A stretch of DNA of 64,000 nt from assembly GCA_903944135.1 (NCBI GenBank), contig CAJAQL010000029.1, forward strand, positions 1,487-65,486, read 5' to 3'. Below the pieces are notes generated by a model. That model was not told the origin of the DNA and made no database searches. It saw nothing but the letters and a program-made list of their open reading frames with translations. The position numbers were made by a program, and so were the translations under genes. How positions within the stretch are numbered: the first letter of the stretch is position 1; the number at the start of each line of letters is the position of its first letter. This stretch comes from an uncultured Parcubacteria group bacterium. Its GTDB lineage: Bacteria > Patescibacteriota > Minisyncoccia > UBA6257 > 2-01-FULL-56-20. Shown one piece after another: positions 311-58,248 of this stretch.

Positions 311-2533
311 TCACTCGCGGTGGAGATTTTTTTGGAATGCCGCGAGCCGCGCTTTGAGCTGGAGATGGTTCTTGAATGTTGGATCGGTTCGGACGGTTTC
401 CGACGCCGCTTCGCGGCTGGTCTTCACAAGCGCCGGATCGCGGAGGGCTTCGAGCGTCGCGTCCGAGAAACCGCTTTGCACCTCACCAAAGAATTCGCCG
501 GGACCGCGGAGCTTGAGATCTTCTTCGGCGAGCTCGAAACCATTTTTCGCCTTAAGGATCGCCCGCAGGCGGGCTTTCGCTTTTTCGCCCTTCATTTCGG
601 TCATCAGGAAACAGTAGGATTGATATTCGCCGCGCCCAATACGGCCGCGGAATTGGTAGAGCTGGGCAAGGCCGAATCGGTCGGCGCCTTCGATGATCAT
701 GATCGCCGCGTTCGGCACGTCAACGCCCACCTCAATGACGGATGTCGCGACCAGCATGTCGATCTTTCCTTCTTTAAAGTCGCGCATGACAGTTTCCTTT
801 TCTTTCGGTTTCATTTTTCCGTGGAGCATGGCGATCTTGAACTCCGGGAATATTTTTTTACTGAGCTTATCGTATTCTTCTTCGACGGATTTCAGATCCA
901 ACGTCGATGTGGAAAATTTTTTGCTGTCATTCCCGCTCAGGCGGGAATCCAGAGTCTTCTTTTTCTGGGTTCCCGCCTGAGCGGGAACGACAGAGTTAGA
1001 TGAGGCGACATCGGTATCCGGCGTGATGAGCGGGCAGATGACGAATGCCTGCCGCCCCTTTTTGATCTCGCCACGTATGAATTCATAGGTCGCCTGCCGT
1101 TCGATCGGTGACACGATTTTGGTCACGATCGGCTTCCGGCCGGCGGGCAGTTCTGTGATAAGCGAAACGTCGAGATCGCCGAAGACGGTCATCATCAAGG
1201 TGCGCGGGATCGGAGTCGCGGACATACTGAGAAGATGCGGTATGCCTGCCGCGCTCGCGCTGCGCGCCAGCGTTTTCCGCTGATTGACGCCGAAGCGATG
1301 CTGTTCGTCGATGACGACAAGCCCGAGATTGTTGAAACGGGCGGATTTTTCGACAAGTGCGTGGGTGCCGAACACGATAGCGATCTCGCCCGCGGCTGAT
1401 TTTTTCCAGAATTCCGCTTTCGGTGTTTTTGCCGTCAGGTCGTTGTCGTAGAGCATGATCGTACCGCTTCCCGTCGCAAGGCCAACCGTAGGCTGATCTT
1501 CTGGTTTCACATGTTTGAGGAATCTTTGGAAGGTTTCGAAATGCTGGCGGGCGAGGATCTCGGTCGGTGCCATAAAAACGGTCTGGAATCCGTGCTCGGC
1601 GGCGGTGATCGCCGCGATCGCGGCGACGATCGTTTTGCCTGAACCGACATCGCCCTGCAGAAGGCGGTTCATCGGTTTCGGTTTGGCGAGGTCCTGCACG
1701 ATGTCCCAGAGCGACTGCTTCTGCGATTGCGTGAGCGAAAAGGGGAGCGTTGCGAGAATGTGTTTGATGCGTTCAATATCGATCGGTATCACGGGAGCCT
1801 GTTCATGGCTCAGCTTCAGTTTTTGCTGGAGATTGAAAAGCTGAAGGAGGAAAAGATTTTCGAATCGGAATCTCCTCTCTGCGGTGGCGGCGTCTTCGAA
1901 GCGGGCAGGAAGATGGATGTCCTGCAGGGCTTTTTGCAGGTTCGGGAGATCATAACGCGAGAGGATCTCTTGCGGGATCCACTCTGCGAGCGCGGGATTG
2001 TGTCTCATGGCGATGCGGATCGCGAACCGGATGCCGCGCGAGGTGAGCCCCTTGGTTTCCGGATAAACGGGAACAAGCCGTCCGGTATGGATAGCTTCGG
2101 AATCCTGCCTGACTACTTCGTATGTGGGATTGTTGAAATAAAGCTCGTTCTCTTCCGAGATGGAAACCTTTCCGGAAAAGTTCGCGATGCGGCCCGCGTG
2201 GAGCGTGTTTGCGATATAGGGCTGATTGAACCAGACGGCGCGGATGGTCCCCGATTCGTCCGAGAGCATCGCTTCGATGATGGTGAGGCCCCGCCGCGTG
2301 CGGCGCGAAGTCACTTCTTCGATGGCGGCCTGAACCGTGGCGAGTTCGCCGGGTTCAAGATCGTCGATCTTGCAGATCTCCGAGAAATCTTCGTAGCGCG
2401 AGGGAAAATGCCAAAGGAGATCGCGGACGGTCTTTATCCCGATCTTTTCGAATCGCTTTAAGAGGGGAGTGCGAGCACCCAGGATGTCATAGAGCGGCGT
2501 TTCAAGCGAGATTTCCCGCATATGATTGGCCAT
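311..2533 (-). CDS. recG: ATP-dependent DNA helicase RecG
   Basis: Walker A GSGKT, a DEQHRFG box, the helicase C-terminal motif QxxGRxGR (YQFRGRIGRGE), and overall RecG-like domain order. The true start is probably MANHMREIS at 2533; the ORF-track N-terminal extension runs through a repeat element. The gene contains an in-frame palindromic-repeat insertion at 926-995. Confidence 0.85.
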   Translation of the reverse strand: MANHMREISLETPLYDILGARTPLLKRFEKIGIKTVRDLLWHFPSRYEDFSEICKIDDLEPGELATVQAAIEEVTSRRTRRGLTIIEAMLSDESGTIRAVWFNQPYIANTLHAGRIANFSGKVSISEENELYFNNPTYEVVRQDSEAIHTGRLVPVYPETKGLTSRGIRFAIRIAMRHNPALAEWIPQEILSRYDLPNLQKALQDIHLPARFEDAATAERRFRFENLFLLQLFNLQQKLKLSHEQAPVIPIDIERIKHILATLPFSLTQSQKQSLWDIVQDLAKPKPMNRLLQGDVGSGKTIVAAIAAITAAEHGFQTVFMAPTEILARQHFETFQRFLKHVKPEDQPTVGLATGSGTIMLYDNDLTAKTPKAEFWKKSAAGEIAIVFGTHALVEKSARFNNLGLVVIDEQHRFGVNQRKTLARSASAAGIPHLLSMSATPIPRTLMMTVFGDLDVSLITELPAGRKPIVTKIVSPIERQATYEFIRGEIKKGRQAFVICPLITPDTDVASSNSVVPAQAGTQKKKTLDSRLSGNDSKKFSTSTLDLKSVEEEYDKLSKKIFPEFKIAMLHGKMKPKEKETVMRDFKEGKIDMLVATSVIEVGVDVPNAAIMIIEGADRFGLAQLYQFRGRIGRGEYQSYCFLMTEMKGEKAKARLRAILKAKNGFELAEEDLKLRGPGEFFGEVQSGFSDATLEALRDPALVKTSREAASETVRTDPTFKNHLQLKARLAAFQKNLHRE
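926..995. repeat. Composite palindromic repeat (two ~28-bp stem-loop units in inverted orientation around a T-rich spacer), inserted in-frame in recG
   Basis: gtcaTTCCCGCtcagGCGGGAAtccagag tcttctttttctgg gtTCCCGCctgaGCGGGAAcgacagag. On the coding strand this gives ...VVPAQAGTQKKKTLDSRLSGNDS... without breaking the reading frame. Confidence 0.8.
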
Positions 2534-2576
2534 AGTATAGCACAAAAGATGAGTCAAGAGAAACGGGATATTTCTT

Positions 2577-2650
2577 GTCGTTCCCGCGTAGGCGGGGATC
2601 CAGGTTTTCTTTGGTACCATTCTGGATCCCCGCATTCGCGGGGACGACAG
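2577..2650. repeat. Composite palindromic repeat (same family) immediately upstream of the recG start
   Basis: gtcgTTCCCGCgtagGCGGGgatccagg ttttctttggtaccatt ctggatcCCCGCattcGCGGGgacgacag. Two units lie in inverted orientation around a 17-bp spacer resembling the spacer of the copy inside recG. Confidence 0.75.
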
Positions 2651-2979: not shown

Positions 2980-3116
2980 GTAGAATTTTTTAATTCTTTT
3001 TCGCGAGCGAACCGATAGCCGATTCTTTTTTCGGGTCATTGGTTTCGCCCTAGAGGTACAGAGGGTGAAATTGATTTTTAATTTATGGCATAATAAACAA
3101 ATGGGCGGGGCGGTGT

Positions 3117-4817: not shown

Positions 4818-5046
4818 GGGATCATCGCGGAACATCGCTCTGGCGGCAAGAATGAAAAAAGCCGATGTCGGGATCAGCCCTTTGCATTTCCATGCGGGAC
4901 ACATGCTCGCCGCCGCTCGCATTTGATCTGGGCGCCGCCTCGCTGAATTTTTCTGCTGAAAAATTCATTTCCGGCGTTCGATTTCCTTGATGTCAGGGCA
5001 TGAAAAAACTGCAGCGAGCAAAGTCGCTGCAGTTTCTTCATGCGAG

Positions 5047-5857: not shown

Positions 5858-7012
5858 ATGCCGAGTTTTTTCTTTCTCAAGAAAAAGAAAAAAGCAGATG
5901 ATCGCACCGTAGGGAAGATATCCCTCTTTTTTGTAAGTATTTTGGCGCTTCAGTTCATGCTGTTCATGTTGCATTTCATGATCTATGAGACGCTTGCGTC
6001 GATCTTCGGTTTTGACAGTCTTTTCCTTGCGGTCGTGCTGGGTCTTTTGTCGCTCACGTTCATGTCGTCGTCGTTCCTTGCGGCGAAGGCGGACAATCTC
6101 TTCGTTCGGATTTACTACGAGTTCGCGGCGGTCTGGTTCTCCTTCGTTGCGCCTTTCTGCGCCGCATGCGCGGCCTTCGTGATCATTGAAAATCTGTCGC
6201 CATCCGCAGTATGGAGGATCACGCCGTTCACGGTCGGTATGTTCTGTTTCGGCGCCGCGATCGTCGTATCGCTCTACGGCATCTGGAACAGTTGCCGTGT
6301 CCGCGTGACGCACGTCGCGATGTCCCTGCCGAACGTTCCCGATGCGTGGCACGGAAAGCGATTGGTCTTTTTTTCTGATGTTCATCTCGGCAACATCCGC
6401 AGGCAGGGCTTTGCGCGGCGCATCGTGAAAAAGGTGCAGACGCTTGATCCGGCGCTCGTTGCGATCTGCGGCGACCTCTTTGACGGTCCGAAGTGCGATG
6501 CCGAAAAATTACTTGCTCCGTTCAGGGATCTGCGACCGTCGCGGGGATTTTATTACGTGAGCGGCAATCATGAATATATCCGCGACCAGAATGTTTTCTT
6601 CGACGCCATTCAAGATGCGGGCATCAGGATCCTGCGGAACGAAAAAGTGGATGTGGATGGCATCGATCTCGTCGGTGTCGATTGGAAAGATACTGCTCAG
6701 AAGGGGAACTTCGCGGCGATTCTTGACGGCATGCATATCTCGTCATCGCGGCCGAGCATTCTTCTGAAACATGTTCCGAAGGATCTCGACGTCGCGGAAC
6801 GTGCCGGCATTTCGCTCCAGCTTTCGGGTCATACGCATCGCGGACAATTCTGGCCGCTTTCGATCGCTACGCATTATATTTACGGTGGATTCGATTATGG
6901 ATTTCATGAACTAGGAAAGATGTTCGTTTATATTTCGAGCGGTGTCGGCACGGCGATGCTGCCGTTCCGGCTCGGCACAAAAGCCGAGATCGTATCTATT
7001 GAATTCAAGTAG
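5858..7012 (+). CDS. Membrane-anchored calcineurin-like metallophosphoesterase
   Basis: An N-terminal region of 4-5 TM helices, then the motifs FFSDVHLG, CGDLFDG, SGNHE and GHTHRGQ. Paralog of 22714..23814. Confidence 0.75.
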   Translation: MPSFFFLKKKKKADDRTVGKISLFFVSILALQFMLFMLHFMIYETLASIFGFDSLFLAVVLGLLSLTFMSSSFLAAKADNLFVRIYYEFAAVWFSFVAPFCAACAAFVIIENLSPSAVWRITPFTVGMFCFGAAIVVSLYGIWNSCRVRVTHVAMSLPNVPDAWHGKRLVFFSDVHLGNIRRQGFARRIVKKVQTLDPALVAICGDLFDGPKCDAEKLLAPFRDLRPSRGFYYVSGNHEYIRDQNVFFDAIQDAGIRILRNEKVDVDGIDLVGVDWKDTAQKGNFAAILDGMHISSSRPSILLKHVPKDLDVAERAGISLQLSGHTHRGQFWPLSIATHYIYGGFDYGFHELGKMFVYISSGVGTAMLPFRLGTKAEIVSIEFK

Positions 7013-7095
7013 AAGGATGGACCACTGTTTTTTCGTCCCCGTCCCTCGAGAGACTCGGGATAAACTCCGGCGGGGACTCAGAAAAGAAGACAACA

Positions 7096-7125
7096 TGGAT
7101 TCCCGCCTTTGCGGGAACGACAGAG
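7096..7125. repeat. Single palindromic repeat unit
   Basis: tggaTTCCCGCctttGCGGGAAcgacagag, 80 nt after the metallophosphoesterase stop. Confidence 0.75.
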
Positions 7126-7369: not shown

Positions 7370-8569
7370 ATGGCAGAAAAAGAAAAATACACCCGAACAA
7401 AGCCGCATGTGAACATCGGCACGATCGGACATGTTGATCACGGAAAAACGACTTTGACCGCCGCGATCACGCATATCTTGCATATGAAAGGTTTGGCGAA
7501 GAAAGAGGAAGGAGTCGATCAGATCGATAATGCTCCGGAAGAAAAAGCGCGCGGTATCACCATTGCGTTGCATCATTCCGAGTACGAGTCGGACACGCGC
7601 CATTATGCGCACGTGGACGCTCCGGGACACGCTGATTACATCAAGAACATGATCACGGGTGCCGCCCAGATGGACGGTGCGATCTTGGTCGTCGCCGCAA
7701 CGGATGGTCCGATGCCGCAGACGCGTGAGCACATTCTCTTGGCGCACCAGGTCGGTGTTCCGAAGATCGTGGTGTTCTTGAACAAGTGCGATATGGTGGA
7801 CGATCCGGAACTCATTGACCTCGTTGAGTCCGAAGTCCGCGAGCTTTTGAAGAAATATGAGTTCGATGGCGATAATGCGCCGGTCATCCGCGGTTCCGCA
7901 TTGAAGGCGCTCGCCGCTACGTCGCTTGACGATCCGGCCGCGAAGCCTATTCTCGACCTCATCAAAGCGGTCGATGAATACATCCCGACCCCTGAGCGCG
8001 CTCTCGATAAACCGTTCCTTATGCCGATCGAAGATATCTTCTCAATTGAAGGTCGCGGCACCGTGGTGACGGGTCGTATCGAACGTGGCAGAGTAAAGGT
8101 GAACGATGAAATCGAATTGGTCGGTCTCCGCCCGACGGCGAAGACGGTCGTCACCGGCATTGAAATGTTCCAGAAGACGCTCGATGAAGGCCAGGCTGGC
8201 GATAACGTCGGCGTCCTGCTCCGCGGTCTCAAGAAAGAGGATGTGGAGCGCGGTCAGGTGCTCGCAAAGCCGGGCAGCGTGACCCCGCATTCCGAATTCG
8301 AAGCGCAGGTCTACGTGCTTTCGAAAGAAGAAGGCGGTCGCCATTCGCCGTTCTTCAAGGGTTACAAGCCGCAGTTCTACATCCGCACCACGGACGTGAC
8401 GGGCGAAGTGACGCTTCCTGAAGGTATGGAAATGGTGATGCCGGGCGATACGGTGAGCCTTTCGGTCAAACTGATCACCCCGGTCGCACTTGAAGAGAAG
8501 CAGCGTTTCGCCATCCGCGAGGGCGGCAAGACGGTCGGTGCCGGTTCGGTCTCGAAGATCATTAAATAA
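7370..8569 (+). CDS. tuf: Elongation factor Tu
   Basis: [34 protein letters not shown]..., [12 protein letters not shown]. Full-length at 399 aa. Confidence 0.97.
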
Positions 8570-9026: not shown

Positions 9027-9038
9027 AGTCATTTTTTT

Positions 9039-9066
9039 GTCATTCCCGCGTAGGCGGGAATCCATG
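9039..9066. repeat. Single palindromic repeat unit (same family as in recG)
   Basis: gtcaTTCCCGCgtagGCGGGAAtccatg. Confidence 0.75.
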
Positions 9067-9191
9067 CTTTGAAAAAGAACAGAAGGAGCATGGACCCTCG
9101 CCGGAGTTCATCCCGGGTCCGTCGAGGGGCGAGAGCAACCCAGAAAAGAAGCACATGTCCGATGTCCGCTTTTAAGCGGGCATCGGACATT

Positions 9192-9823: not shown

Positions 9824-9938
9824 CTCGCAGTTTACAGTTCCTTGTCGGCGCTCTCCTTGGAGGGCGCCGCATTTTTATAGTTCAATTTTCTGCCATGATC
9901 CGCGGAGGCGGATCATCCGCGCTTTCGAGCGTTTGTTT

Positions 9939-9966
9939 TGTCGTTCCGAGCTTCGCGAGGAATCCC
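9939..9966. repeat. Degenerate variant of the palindromic repeat
   Basis: gtcgTTCCgagcttcgcgaGGAAtcccc shares the cttcgcgagg core with the 21149 variant. Confidence 0.4.
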
Positions 9967-10016
9967 CACGTTGACGAAAAAAGGATTCTTCGCAAGCTCA
10001 GAATGACTGTTGATAA

Positions 10017-14173: not shown

Positions 14174-14848
14174 ATGAACACAGAAAATAGTTTCGGTACA
14201 TTTTTGCGCGGGGTCTATGCTTGGATGTTCCTTGGTCTTCTTCTTACCGCCATAACGGCCTTCGCAGTATCGACCAGCCAAAGCTTGGCGCAGATCGTCA
14301 TTGGCAATTCGTTCGTCTTCTACGGTTTAATGGTCGTCGAGCTGATATTGGTATTCGTACTTGCCTCCCGCGTGAAGAATATGTCGCCCTCCGCGGCAAC
14401 ATGTCTATTTTTGCTTTATTCCGTTCTGAACGGTGCAACGTTCGCTTCCATCTTCCTCGCATATACCGGCGCTTCCATCGTTCTCGCCTTTGCGGGAACG
14501 GCAGTGATGTTCGGCGTGGTAAGCCTCTATGGCTCTATCACCAAGAAGGATCTGACCGGCCTCGGTCACTTTATGGGTATGGCACTCATTGGATTGATCG
14601 TGGTTTCCCTTATTGATGTTTTTTTTGCCAGCCAGACGCTGGATTGGATAACCTCCTGGGCGGGCATCATCATCTTTACAGCACTCACGGCATATGATAC
14701 GCAAAAGATGAAACGGCTGTACGGTGGCATTGAATCGGATGCCGACGGACGATCATTGTCGATCATGGGAGCTCTCACGCTGTATCTCGACTTCATCAAT
14801 CTGTTTCTGGACCTGCTCCGCATCTTTGGACGTCAAAGGAGCGATTGA
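14174..14848 (+). CDS. Bax inhibitor-1/YccA family membrane protein
   Basis: 7 TM helices and the C-terminal ...GALTLYLDFINLFLDLLRIFG motif typical of the BI-1 family. Confidence 0.75.
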   Translation: MNTENSFGTFLRGVYAWMFLGLLLTAITAFAVSTSQSLAQIVIGNSFVFYGLMVVELILVFVLASRVKNMSPSAATCLFLLYSVLNGATFASIFLAYTGASIVLAFAGTAVMFGVVSLYGSITKKDLTGLGHFMGMALIGLIVVSLIDVFFASQTLDWITSWAGIIIFTALTAYDTQKMKRLYGGIESDADGRSLSIMGALTLYLDFINLFLDLLRIFGRQRSD

Positions 14849-20807: not shown

Positions 20808-20987
20808 AAGAGGAAGCGCGGCTTAAAAAGTATTTGGATTTTTTGAAGGAATAAAGATATTGCGATCCGATACCTGAAAGAAAAGAAGCTAGCATAAAAA
20901 TCGAAAGAGACTGACGGGGAATTGTCCCTCGATTAGGATCGATGTCATGAGTTTCATCTTTGTGTTATACTAAAATTACAACTGAAT

Positions 20988-21124
20988 AATTATCGAGAGT
21001 AGCGGGGAGAGTTCTGGCTCAATGATCCGCTCGGCAACTTGCTCAAAGCAAAGTGCCACATCCAGCCCGCAAGGGAGAGATAAAGGTCGAAACGCTCTTC
21101 TTTTCGATGAGCGTTTTTTTATTC
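20988..21124 (+). promoter_or_regulatory. SAM-I-like riboswitch with terminator expression platform, upstream of metK
   Basis: UUAUCGAGAG...GGGGAGAGUUCUGGCUCAAUGAUCCGCUCGGCAACU(hairpin)GUGCCACAUCC...CCCGCAAGGG...GAGAUAA aligns with the SAM-I core (CUGGCCCGAUGA...CCGGCAACC...GGUGCCAAUUCC, P4 hairpin, closing P1). It is followed by aacgctcttcttttcgatgagcgttttttt. Confidence 0.6.
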
Positions 21125-21148
21125 GGTTGCCGAAGGAAGACTGGAAGC

Positions 21149-21177
21149 ATGGATCCTCGCCTTCGCGAGGACGACGG
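21149..21177. repeat. Variant palindromic repeat unit
   Basis: atggatCCTCGCcttcGCGAGGacgacgg has the same architecture with a CCTCGC stem. Confidence 0.5.
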
Positions 21178-21278
21178 AAGAGGCGGTAAATCATGAGAAA
21201 GCAGTCGAGGGGAGGACGACAGGGGAGGAGAAAATAAACCTAGATCCCGTTTTGTAACGGGATGACGCTAAAAACTTT

Positions 21279-22226
21279 ATGAATAAAACTATACGAACAG
21301 CGGAATTCGTTTCACCAAAGCATCCGGATAAGATGTGCGATATCATCGCGGACACGATCCTTGATGCATATCTCGCAGGCGATCCCGCGAGCCGTGTGGC
21401 GGTGGAAGTGATGGGCGGGCATGGCCATGTGTCGGTATCAGGCGAAGTGACGAGTAATGCAGAAGTGGACATCGAGAATATCGTTAAAAATATTGCAGGC
21501 AAAGATCTTGTGGTACACCAGTACCTTACGAAGCAAAGTTCTGAGATCGCACAGGGCGTTGATGCTGGCGGCGCAGGGGATCAGGGCATCATGATCGGCT
21601 ACGCAACGCGGGATGCGGAGAATTTTATGCCGCTCGAATATGAGCTGGCGCGGAAATTGTGTTGGGATATCTTCAAAAAATATCCGTTCGATGGAAAGAC
21701 GCAGGTGACGATCGAGGACGGCAAGGTACGCACCGTCGTGGCAAGTTTCCAGAACTCAAAAACGCCGGACCTCGAAAAATTGGTCCGTTCGCTCATCGTG
21801 TCCGAAGAATATCTTATAAATCCTGCCGGGGAGTGGACGCGGGGTGGTTTCGACGCCGACTCAGGGCTTTCAGGGCGCAAAATAGTCATTGACAATTACG
21901 GACCGGAAACGGGCGTCGGCGGTGGATCGTTCTCCGGCAAGGACTACACGAAAGTGGATCGTTCCGGAGCTTATATGGCGCGCCGCATCGCCGTGGATCA
22001 CCTCGCAAAATATCCGGAAGCCCAGACGGTGCGCGTGAAACTTGCCTATGCTATTGGGAAGCCCTTGCCTGTCATGGCGGTGGCCGAAGTGGATGGCGAA
22101 GAGATCACGATCAATGGCTACGATCTCACGCCGCGAGGGATCTATGCCGCGCTCGCACTCGATAAGGTTCGCTGGGTGGACACGGCGGCATGGGGGCATT
22201 TCGGCAGAGGATTCAGCTGGGGATAA
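21279..22226 (+). CDS. metK: S-adenosylmethionine synthetase (compact, 315 aa)
   Basis: SPKHPDKMCDIIADTILDA, GAGDQGIMIGYA, GGGSFSGKDYTKVDRSGAYMARRIA and a C-terminal WGHFGR. Shorter than the usual ~385 aa, but both termini align with MetK. Confidence 0.85.
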   Translation: MNKTIRTAEFVSPKHPDKMCDIIADTILDAYLAGDPASRVAVEVMGGHGHVSVSGEVTSNAEVDIENIVKNIAGKDLVVHQYLTKQSSEIAQGVDAGGAGDQGIMIGYATRDAENFMPLEYELARKLCWDIFKKYPFDGKTQVTIEDGKVRTVVASFQNSKTPDLEKLVRSLIVSEEYLINPAGEWTRGGFDADSGLSGRKIVIDNYGPETGVGGGSFSGKDYTKVDRSGAYMARRIAVDHLAKYPEAQTVRVKLAYAIGKPLPVMAVAEVDGEEITINGYDLTPRGIYAALALDKVRWVDTAAWGHFGRGFSWG

Positions 22227-56646: not shown

Positions 56647-58248
56647 ATGCCACGAAAATTTTTATGGGTTGCGGCAATGGCGGTTGTGGTGACGGTCGGT
56701 ATGCTTTCTGCAAACGGCGTTGCCTATGCGGTGGTTCCGACGCTCAGTCAAACGAGCGTTACGGTCGGCATCGGGCAGTCGCTTACGATCACGTCGGAGA
56801 ACAATAATAGCGTGTATGTGGATCTGAATTCCGCACCTACCATTGCCTCTGTCTCGGCGAATGGAACACAGATCACGGTTACGGGACAGGGACTTGGATC
56901 GTCGACCATCACGGTTTGTGCGGTTGGTACGGCTTCGGACTGCACCGTCTTCGCCGTCACGGTACAGGCCACAAGTGCATCGAAGATATCATTCAGTCAA
57001 AATAATTTTTCTTTATCAGTGAACAGCAACCAATCGGTGACCCTTTCTGGCGGCAATGGCGCTTATACGATATCGAGCAATTCCAATACAAGCGCCGTTT
57101 CACTGGGTCTGTCGGGTACTGCACTTACCGTTTCCGGATTGGCCGCCGGCAGCGCCACGATAACGGTCTGCGACACATCAAATACCAATACCTGCGGTAC
57201 GCTTTCGGTCACGGTCATTTCTTCCGGTTCTTCCAGCTCATCCAGTCTTTCTTTCAGTGAGAACAATATTTCTTTGGTGGCGGGCAATAGCCAGTCAGTG
57301 GTCATCTCCGGTGGAAACGGGACGTACCAGATATCCAGCATTTCCAATCCGAGCGTTGTTTCCGCGGGTATGTCCGGCAGTAATATCACCGCAGCCGCCA
57401 CTGCCGCCGGCAGCGCCACGATAACGGTCTGCGATACATCGAATACCAATACCTGCGGTACGCTTTCGGTCACGGTGACGGGGTCATCGTCAACATCAAA
57501 CCAGATAATCGTATTCAGCGTGACAAATCCCACACTTGCGGTCGGACAGAGCCTGAACGTAAATATTTCTGGTTCTGCGCCGAGCTATTTCATTTTTTCG
57601 AATGCGAATGCGGGCGTCGCACAGGGAAACATGGCAACCGGCAACACGCTTTCACTTTCCGGCGTGAGCGCCGGAACGGATTCGATTTCGATATGTGCTA
57701 CGGGCGGCGCCGGGTGTCTTCCTCTTTCCGTGACGGTAACGGGTCCCGTGAGCACGCCTGTCGTTGCAACTGCTCCTGCGGTCACACCATCAACCACGCC
57801 AACCACGCCAACGACACCGACGGTGTCTGCGGGAACATCAGTCGCGAATACCGCGCTCCTTGCCGAGATCCAGACGCTCCAAACCGCAGTGACGCAGGTT
57901 TTAACCCAGATCCAATCGATCCAGACACAGATCAATCAGCTTGAGGCACAGGTGAACGCCGGCAGTGGGAGCGGCATCAGCACGAATGTGAGTGCGAGCA
58001 CCGCGACGAACATTTCATCAGGAACGTCAGGTGGTTTCACGGAACTTTTAACAGTAGGATCCCAGGATGCGCAGGTGACCGCGCTTCAGAATAAGCTTGC
58101 TGCGCTTGGATTCTTTTCCGGTTCCATAACCGGTTACTATGGAACGCTGACCCAGGAGGCGGTCATGAAATATCAGACCGCGCACGGCATCTCCGCAACC
58201 GGATCCGTTGGCCCGAGCACCCGCGCGGCGCTGAATGCAGGGGAATAG
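56647..58248 (+). CDS. Secreted repeat protein: three Ig-like (Big_2-type) repeats, TP-rich linker, coiled coil, C-terminal PG_binding_1 domain
   Basis: A ~60-aa unit (SGGNGAYTISS...ATITVCDTSNTNTCGTLSVTV) occurs three times, with a TPSTTPTTPTTPT linker. The C-terminus ...AQVTALQNKLAALGFF...GYYGTLTQEAVMKYQ is the PG-binding motif. Confidence 0.55.
   Translation: MPRKFLWVAAMAVVVTVGMLSANGVAYAVVPTLSQTSVTVGIGQSLTITSENNNSVYVDLNSAPTIASVSANGTQITVTGQGLGSSTITVCAVGTASDCTVFAVTVQATSASKISFSQNNFSLSVNSNQSVTLSGGNGAYTISSNSNTSAVSLGLSGTALTVSGLAAGSATITVCDTSNTNTCGTLSVTVISSGSSSSSSLSFSENNISLVAGNSQSVVISGGNGTYQISSISNPSVVSAGMSGSNITAAATAAGSATITVCDTSNTNTCGTLSVTVTGSSSTSNQIIVFSVTNPTLAVGQSLNVNISGSAPSYFIFSNANAGVAQGNMATGNTLSLSGVSAGTDSISICATGGAGCLPLSVTVTGPVSTPVVATAPAVTPSTTPTTPTTPTVSAGTSVANTALLAEIQTLQTAVTQVLTQIQSIQTQINQLEAQVNAGSGSGISTNVSASTATNISSGTSGGFTELLTVGSQDAQVTALQNKLAALGFFSGSITGYYGTLTQEAVMKYQTAHGISATGSVGPSTRAALNAGE

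Follow-up and report, generated by a model that had tools for sequence, protein, structure and literature searches.

Palindromic repeats with the anatomy of CGTC-1-type repetitive extragenic palindromic (REP) elements are scattered over the start of a 64,000-nt stretch of an uncultured Parcubacteria group genome (contig CAJAQL010000029.1, positions 1,487 to 65,486; hereafter the window, to which coordinates refer unless a relative's locus is named), and one inverted pair of them lies in frame within recG, the gene for a repair helicase. We consider it likely that these units represent, in the Patescibacteria (Paceibacteria), the class met elsewhere as CGTC-1, as dRS3 or NTS in Neisseria, as the 'Ssn-related motif' (SRM) and as the Rickettsia palindromic element (RPE) RPE-6, and that they conform to the general hairpin-element model developed below.

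A dispersed family of palindromic units

Searching the window for TTCCCGC-N4-GCGGGAA with up to two mismatches returned 8 matches against 0.41 expected, a count that none of 100 shuffles attained; pattern matches at 14481 and 50192 are probably due to chance. Direct and inverted repeat searches recovered the same copies, the majority of them as inverted pairs. A covariance model, R1, was built on 12 aligned units from the window and two related loci and used to score the whole window with filters off. It identified eight strong units with E values from 2e-11 to 1.3e-7, namely 923–954 (+), 963–994 (−), 2574–2605 (+), 2620–2651 (−), 7093–7124 (−), 9036–9067 (+), 21147–21178 (−) and 21238–21269 (−), together with four degenerate or long-loop units, giving six loci in total, all within the first 21.3 kb (900–21300). 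One more candidate at 14475–14505, in a membrane-protein open reading frame (ORF), scored E 0.09 and was treated as chance. No Rfam family reached its gathering threshold on the units, which drew just chance microRNA-like matches (E 0.003–0.8).

These results bear out the dispersed palindromic, REP-like family proposed in an initial annotation of this DNA, and every unit listed there exists, at or within 3 nt of the position given. The inventory needs amending in two respects: the unit at 21238–21269, with stem TCCCGTT, had been missed, and five loci rather than two are composites of two units. Of the two variants with CCTCGC stems that had been named, the one at 21149–21177 holds up as a strong unit, whereas that at 9939–9966 is weak alone and forms a dimer with 9973–10002.

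Each unit reads (C/T)GTC(A/G), a GC-rich stem of 7–8 bp, a loop, the complementary stem and TCCA(G/T)G. All eight strong units have a 4-nt loop, while two further units (7035–7080 and 9092–9140), each partnering a short unit, carry a loop insert of 25–30 nt. Stem sequence varies among copies (TTCCCGC, TCCCCGC, TCCTCGC, TCCCGTT, TTCCGGC and others) with complementarity kept. Across 35 units from the window and Patescibacteria loci, in an alignment that had been fitted to the model, 99.6% of the stem cells are paired and double changes occur in seven of the eight pairs; none of 500 shuffles gave as high a covariation score, and slid registers came nowhere near it. The first pair is A-U in 26 units, G-U in 8 and G-C in 1, and the second is U-A in 33 of the 35. 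Outside the stem, the invariant columns of the 12-unit alignment include G4, T5 and C6, which form the unpaired tag, and C27, the first C after the stem. The base preceding the GTC is T or C in most of these 12 units, G rather than A or T follows it in five of the eight strong units, most units end in a CCA tail, and A29 is conserved at 90% or more.

Inverted dimers with their GTC tags outermost occupy five of the six loci, the exception being a tandem pair in the metK leader. The dimers within recG, upstream of recG and at 9937–10002 each fold into a single long hairpin (z −13, −8.1 and −4.2, respectively). Filled-versus-empty comparisons at the recG and rpsJ sites showed no target-site duplication flanking either dimer, the ends being inverted (GTCR...YGAC). 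The suggestion that these are miniature inverted-repeat transposable elements is therefore not supported in the strict sense.

An in-frame dimer in recG

The recG gene (311–2533, −) encodes 740 aa from a start at 2533 or, alternatively, from a Met codon at 2521, and is identified by profile matches (NCBIfam RecG equivalog, 801 bits; Pfam RecG_wedge, DEAD and Helicase_C). Within it, a CGTC-type REP dimer with outermost tags occupies 926–991 (−). At 66 bp it supplies 22 codons (aa 515–536, VVPAQAGTQKKKTLDSRLSGND), slightly less than the roughly 70 bp and 23 residues first estimated. The two units, 963–994 (−) and 923–954 (+), score R1 E values of 6e-10 and 8.4e-10 and enclose a 12-nt spacer, and on the recG strand the element begins GTCG and ends TGAC. 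The whole folds as one 29-bp hairpin, at −34.6 kcal/mol as DNA and −58.2 kcal/mol as RNA.

Comparison with solved structures places this segment outside the common RecG fold. Alignment with Thermotoga maritima RecG (PDB 1gm5, E 4e-138) breaks at this point, query residues 504–543 standing opposite chain residues 589–592; solved RecG structures hold 2–4 residues at the site, four in the Escherichia coli protein, and the dimer-encoded residues sit in a stretch of 36–38 aa that is extra relative to them. In an AlphaFold2 model based on 62 homologs (mean predicted local distance difference test (pLDDT) score 80), aa 506–547 fall below a pLDDT of 50 and have no secondary structure, between a strand at 495–499 and a helix at 550–561, so that the insert is predicted to form a disordered loop. 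RecG is kept intact despite the in-frame insertion. That the insertion is tolerated, as the initial annotation had proposed, agrees with its predicted position and with its absence from T. maritima RecG, E. coli RecG and several close relatives; the number of copies in the window is likewise well above two, the level at or below which a dispersed family had been thought doubtful.

The repeats also affect the annotated start of the gene. All RecG homologs begin MANHMREISLE or MREISLE, and the 34-aa ORF extension that runs through a second dimer at 2577–2648 is therefore spurious, as had been suspected.

A separate in-frame case was seen in locus L081 (962–2695, −), on a contig binned as a Nanoarchaeota archaeon, a binning that may be wrong. 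The 577-aa product, which resembles a DNA methyltransferase by eye from its DFFLGSGTT motif, contains a CGTC dimer (MDSCFRRND...VIPAQAGIQ) just before that motif.

Presence, absence and possible turnover in relatives

Among 120 Paceibacteria RecG proteins the length of the loop varies widely, by 46 residues. Within the closest clade, REP-derived peptides are found in the query and in P0001–9, P0010, P0011, P0012, P0014, P0015, P0023 and P0024 and are absent from P0013 and P0016–P0022, a patchy pattern on a rough tree. Some relatives at 71–78% RecG identity share the orthologous insert and others have an empty site. At the DNA level, orthologous recG dimers with the same 3′ flank are present in loci L003 and L005, and the site is empty in L006. 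Judged by these sequence comparisons, the recG insert is not unique to this lineage. The ortholog alignment suggested in the initial annotation thus confirms that the residues are missing from distant, structurally solved RecG proteins, but not that they are lineage-specific.

The nearest relative, represented by locus L001, offers a finer comparison. Outside the insert, identity in recG reaches 97.4% for the protein and 92.5% for the DNA, and 21.6% of 4-fold degenerate sites differ. At the same place in the gene, it carries a different dimer, composed of a unit with stem TCCTGCGT and a long-loop unit, and alignment of the recG unit across the two genomes gives an identity of just some 44%. 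The orthologous unit upstream of tuf (window 7096–7122) differs from its L001 counterpart by three clean compensatory pair changes with the loop unchanged, and the position orthologous to the rpsJ-site dimer is empty in L001. Because orthologous units diverge beyond 4-fold sites while keeping their pairing, the units appear to be under structural constraint and yet to change faster than neutral sites, which could reflect either compensatory evolution or replacement of one copy by another.

Copies outside the recG reading frame

The dimer at 2577–2648, tags outermost, comprises units 2574–2605 (+) and 2620–2651 (−) (R1 E 7.4e-10 and 1.2e-10), lies 43 nt upstream of the recG start codon, between recG and a divergent tRNA-Lys gene, and folds as one hairpin at −31 kcal/mol. 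A second dimer (7035–7124) pairs a long-loop unit (7035–7080, +) with a short one (7093–7124, −; E 2e-11) between a metallophosphoesterase gene (5858–7012) and tuf (7370–8569). After the rpsJ terminator, 9036–9140 joins a short unit (9036–9067, +; E 6e-11) to a long-loop unit (9092–9140, −). The degenerate dimer at 9937–10002, between a DUF6580 gene and the convergent miaA, also has outermost tags; its stems, TTCCGAGC/GCGAGGAA, contain tandem G-A mismatches, and the unit at 9937–9969, weak in R1 when taken alone (E 0.68), pairs with 9973–10002 into a one-hairpin dimer. The last site lies between a SAM riboswitch with its terminator (20987–21120; Rfam RF00162, 54.7 bits) and the metK start at 21279; it holds two units in the same orientation (−), 21147–21178 (stem TCCTCGC, E 1.9e-10) and 21238–21269 (stem TCCCGTT, E 1.3e-7), with a remnant between them.

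Several observations attach to these sites. A recurrent 25-nt module, CCTCGAsrGryyyGGGATrAACTCC, occupies the loops of some units (window 7044–7068, +, and 9103–9127, −; L001 9907–9931, −), enlarging a 4-nt loop to about 29 nt, and resembles a nested insertion in the loop of the hairpin. Adjoining the rpsJ-site dimer is a long near-perfect hairpin at 9155–9190 (ATGTCCGATGTCCGC-ttttaa-GCGGGCATCGGACAT) that is not a CGTC unit; hairpin and dimer are missing together from L001. MetK, encoded in the riboswitch–metK region (20987–22226), is unusually short at 315 aa yet has all three MetK domains (Pfam). Elsewhere in the window, two tandem 238-nt copies with 73% identity lie at 56978–57476.

The tRNA-Lys locus beside the recG-upstream dimer has a nested structure (2706–2975, +), in which the 5′ half (2706–2741) and the 3′ half (2937–2975) of one tRNA-Lys enclose a complete tRNA-Lys(CTT) at 2814–2887. 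The spacers are reverse-complementary, and 277 nt fold into a cloverleaf, a long helix and a second cloverleaf at its tip (−116.9 kcal/mol, z −6.3). In L001 (9400–9780, −), the insertion point in the anticodon loop is the same, the arms are different yet complementary, and the outer copy shows additional disruptions, one of them a GTC-tagged hairpin in its T-loop. More distant relatives have a single tRNA-Lys.

Relationship to known repeat families

The closest description is that of CGTC-1 by Di Nocera, De Gregorio and Rocco (2013, BMC Genomics 14:522; PMC3733652), who assign to it a CGTC tag with TGTC or CCTC variants, a stem of 8 bp whose first pairs are A-T, a loop of 4 nt and a 3-nt unpaired tail of the CCA type. 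They further describe mostly head-to-head dimers, with tags outside, loops that are atypical in certain species, in-frame copies within coding sequences, with a concentration in genes for replication and repair, and an absence of any association with tyrosine-transposase genes; they equate CGTC-1 with Neisseria dRS3 and with RPE-6 of Rickettsia conorii, and CGTC-4 with RPE-4. Our units agree in the unpaired CGTC/TGTC tag, in the 8-bp stem beginning A-T, T-A, in loop and tail, in the predominance of dimers with outer tags, in homodimers that fold into one long hairpin, in their location after ORFs, in having no adjacent transposase and in in-frame intragenic dimers of 20–30 aa, notably in DNA-repair genes. 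They differ in their host, which belongs to a phylum outside that survey, in a first stem pair that is often G-T rather than A-T (a minor departure), in the recurrent 25–30 nt loop insert of some units and in the site itself, recG not being among the repair genes named in its available text.

In a scan of one genome per species, the exact 26-mer GTCRTTCCCGCNNNNGCGGGAATCCA was present in at least 120 stretches, often as inverted pairs; hosts among the matches listed include Proteobacteria isolates and Neisseria lactamica as well as Chloroflexota, Bacteroidota, Planctomycetota, Paceibacteria, Saccharibacteria and others, and at least 120 stretches of viral contigs also contain it. When the literature was searched for REPs of Patescibacteria or of the wider candidate phyla radiation, none of the papers listed used the term REP.

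The Neisseria repeat has since been redefined as a 28-nt NTS, CGTCATTCCCGCGMAVGCGGGAATCYRG, which the 94-aa GIY-YIG protein SsnA binds and cuts only when it is single-stranded DNA (ssDNA) and only on one of the two strands; binding depends critically on the C immediately 3′ of the palindrome and cleavage on the three bases 5′ of it, and ssnA homologs (single-domain GIY-YIG, cd10448) are typically flanked by such motifs, named SRM (Chenal et al. 2025, Nat Commun 16:2388). The units described here are likewise directional, their consensus appears near-identical, and their invariant GTC tag and C after the palindrome correspond to the SsnA cleavage- and binding-critical bases. Scored against the NTS consensus, units of the window show 2–6 mismatches, with three or fewer in two of the seven scored. 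The search pattern for SRM, taken literally, is overly stringent, losing units through the base that follows GTC or else through the base that opens the loop, and we therefore assigned membership by the CGTC-1 feature list. The units differ from the NTS/SRM system in that most miss this literal pattern, the window contains no ssnA-like gene, the unit–gene–unit architecture is absent in this lineage, and the local GIY-YIG subfamily is not associated with units.

Among the Rickettsia elements, reportedly described by Ogata and colleagues in 2000 and later, the classical RPE-1 is said to span 100–150 bp and to have a consensus of its own. The recG dimer resembles RPEs as a palindromic repeat in frame in a conserved gene that adds a surface peptide without destroying the protein, and the analogy drawn in the initial annotation proves closer than claimed, given that CGTC-1 is equated with RPE-6 (PMC3733652). 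The likeness to the class as a whole is narrower, with only RPE-6, and RPE-4 for CGTC-4, so equated, a link that comes from the literature.

Candidate partners and competing explanations

In the hairpin-element model that we favour, each unit would act as a strand-specific hairpin, with the (C/T)GTC tag left unpaired ahead of an 8-bp stem that closes a 4-nt loop and is followed by CCA, and an inverted dimer with outermost tags could extrude as one long hairpin or cruciform. The units would be non-autonomous and depend on a nuclease provided in trans that recognises their ssDNA hairpins, for which an SsnA-like endonuclease, a single-domain GIY-YIG enzyme acting on ssDNA, is the best candidate; in Neisseria, SsnA makes contact through the C that directly follows the palindrome and cleaves close to the GTC tag (Chenal et al. 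2025). Copies would persist between genes, after terminators and in leaders. One dimer would have landed, or been passed down, where the second RecA-like domain of RecG begins, in a surface loop predicted to be disordered, and may survive there because its length is a multiple of three, its frame has no stop codon and its position is outside the fold. Any mobility is inferred, as is Ssn-type recognition, the latter from the conserved bases and the literature rather than from this lineage; a specific Ssn partner here is put forward tentatively, the balance leaning somewhat against it.

In favour of such a partner, the unit–GIY-YIG–unit arrangement is present, as published, in the proteobacterial loci L043 (Methylotenera), L087 (Sphingorhabdus) and L127. 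L001 has a single-domain GIY-YIG gene (Pfam GIY-YIG, 57.9 bits) in a 528-nt segment (L001 6997–7524) that is cleanly absent from the window (at about 4900–4912), and homologs of this type are common in Patescibacteria and align with the proteobacterial unit-flanked proteins.

A set of findings weighs against the proposed mechanism. Regular-expression, tblastn and hidden Markov model searches found no GIY-YIG gene encoded in the window; the L001 gene lacks flanking units and seems altered at its C-terminus; and among 80 further metagenomic loci (362 kb) with the Patescibacteria GIY-YIG gene, five units turned up in two loci, none within 1.9 kb of the gene. In several loci, L130 included, the gene follows smpB–ssrA or ssrA instead, and in many a different conserved hairpin, CGACTC-stem-TCGCTC, stands upstream of it. 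The literal SRM pattern matches just one of the eight units, at the 9036–9140 locus, against 0.26 expected by chance, and our comparisons showed neither a transposition event nor a target-site duplication or a polymorphic insertion. Four loci with the Patescibacteria GIY-YIG subfamily had no flanking units. Given the 80 unassociated loci, the smpB–ssrA context and the different upstream hairpin, this subfamily is probably not the partner, and we rejected the L001 protein as a cognate Ssn although it is a genuine GIY-YIG domain. A possible remnant in the window at 3029–3082 (−), an 18-aa tblastn match with an internal stop codon (E 0.31), is too weak to claim; its similarity to the GIY-YIG N-terminus may reflect decay or chance.

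The other hairpin deserves a note of its own. CGACTC-(variable stem-loop)-TCGCTC is found in many of the loci L253–L332, and in L130 (3743–3760) and L295 (3858–3899) it directly follows the transfer-messenger RNA gene and is succeeded by CTCGTGG..CCACGAG; in these two loci the GIY-YIG gene lies downstream of ssrA, and in L130 of smpB–ssrA. It may be the cognate motif of that GIY-YIG subfamily.

The absence of a partner gene from the window and the lack of association in the local GIY-YIG subfamily would be expected if the copies were relics, spread in an ancestor or by transfer and now kept only by selection as transcribed hairpins, with no dedicated enzyme left and with local roles as stabilisers of mRNA 3′ ends, helpers of terminators or leader structures. 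Most copies do lie just after terminators or in leaders, all are in transcribed or likely transcribed positions, several are degenerate, and the G-T/G-U pair that opens the stem of 8 among the 35 units favours folding on one strand. What this account leaves unexplained is why the tag, which is unpaired, and the C that follows the stem are invariant across genomes although neither contributes to a hairpin, a conservation that points to a sequence-specific protein reader; nor does it accommodate orthologous units that outpace 4-fold sites while perfectly paired, or the recurrence of the same 26-mer across phyla. We regard it as unlikely, although it is the alternative to which we give most weight. 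A different enzyme is invoked if the dimers are REP doublets of the REPIN type, mobilised by a domesticated IS200-like tyrosine (Y1) transposase, or RAYT (REP-associated tyrosine transposase; Bertels and Rainey 2011). Two inverted REPs with a short spacer that form a hairpin, and a population persisting vertically at fixed intergenic sites, are REPIN-like traits, and a Y1_Tnp gene of 228–233 aa does lie directly downstream of recG in L003 (4175–4907), L005 (12255–13038) and L006 (6158–6965), passing the Pfam Y1_Tnp threshold (35.7 bits) and scoring 41 bits, under the 80-bit cutoff, for its best NCBIfam match, 'REP-associated tyrosine transposase'. That gene is, however, flanked and internally marked by another palindrome, ATTATCGAGGCC..GGCCTCGATAAT with genome-specific variants such as AAATTATCGAGGCCGGGCCTCGATAATTT; neither the palindrome nor a Y1_Tnp homolog is in the window, and we rejected it as the partner. 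Moreover, the tag here is GTC rather than GTAG, no RAYT gene was found flanked by these units, L006 combines the Y1 gene with a recG site that is empty, and CGTC repeats were never found with tyrosine-transposase genes (Di Nocera et al., PMC3733652). Mobilisation by a RAYT is accordingly improbable. In its own right, the Y1_Tnp gene of L003, L005 and L006 constitutes a REPtron/TIRtron-like unit in conserved synteny.

A final possibility concerns recG alone, namely that the segment is an ancestral functional loop of RecG that merely resembles the repeat. Loop length is variable across Paceibacteria RecG (14–57 aa over the scored interval), and several relatives at 71–78% identity have VIPAxAGIQ...LDSRxxGND in common. 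Yet the DNA matches the intergenic units over their full length (R1 E about 1e-9), the perfect 29-bp palindrome is unexplained by protein constraint, L006 and at least seven other clade members have an empty site, and solved RecG structures have only those 2–4 residues where the segment is predicted to be disordered. We find this reading barely credible.

Implications

Both the element class and its behaviour within repair genes have already been described, and no new category is opened here. New are the phylum of the host, the site in recG and signs of a fast, structure-preserving turnover with no obvious local partner. In annotations of Patescibacteria, such repeats give rise to small ORFs that are spurious and to false extensions of N-termini, as with the 34 aa added to recG, and artefact peptides such as MDSRLRGND and IPAQAGIQ inflate apparent protein novelty. 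RecG itself provides a clean example of a repair helicase that tolerates a 29-bp perfect palindrome within its coding sequence. Patescibacteria are thought to rely on DNA uptake, and the present units extend to them a cross-phylum class of palindromes for which one reader alone has been characterised, a modulator of natural transformation in Neisseria.

We also raise, as a speculation more bold than probable, that a partner other than the published Ssn arrangement may service the CGTC/NTS hairpins of Patescibacteria, and that fixed 'landing pads' may see their units turned over, whether copies are replaced or compensatory changes strongly selected. The first part draws on the local GIY-YIG subfamily being unlinked to the units and on the Y1 transposase having a palindrome of its own, the second on the different recG dimers in genomes whose recG is 97% identical apart from the insert, on the three compensatory swaps upstream of tuf and on the recurrent module nested in loops. 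If it were true, much of the hypervariable RecG loop of Paceibacteria could consist of decayed REP insertions, and the elements would generate diversity of protein loops in bacteria that are streamlined and naturally competent.

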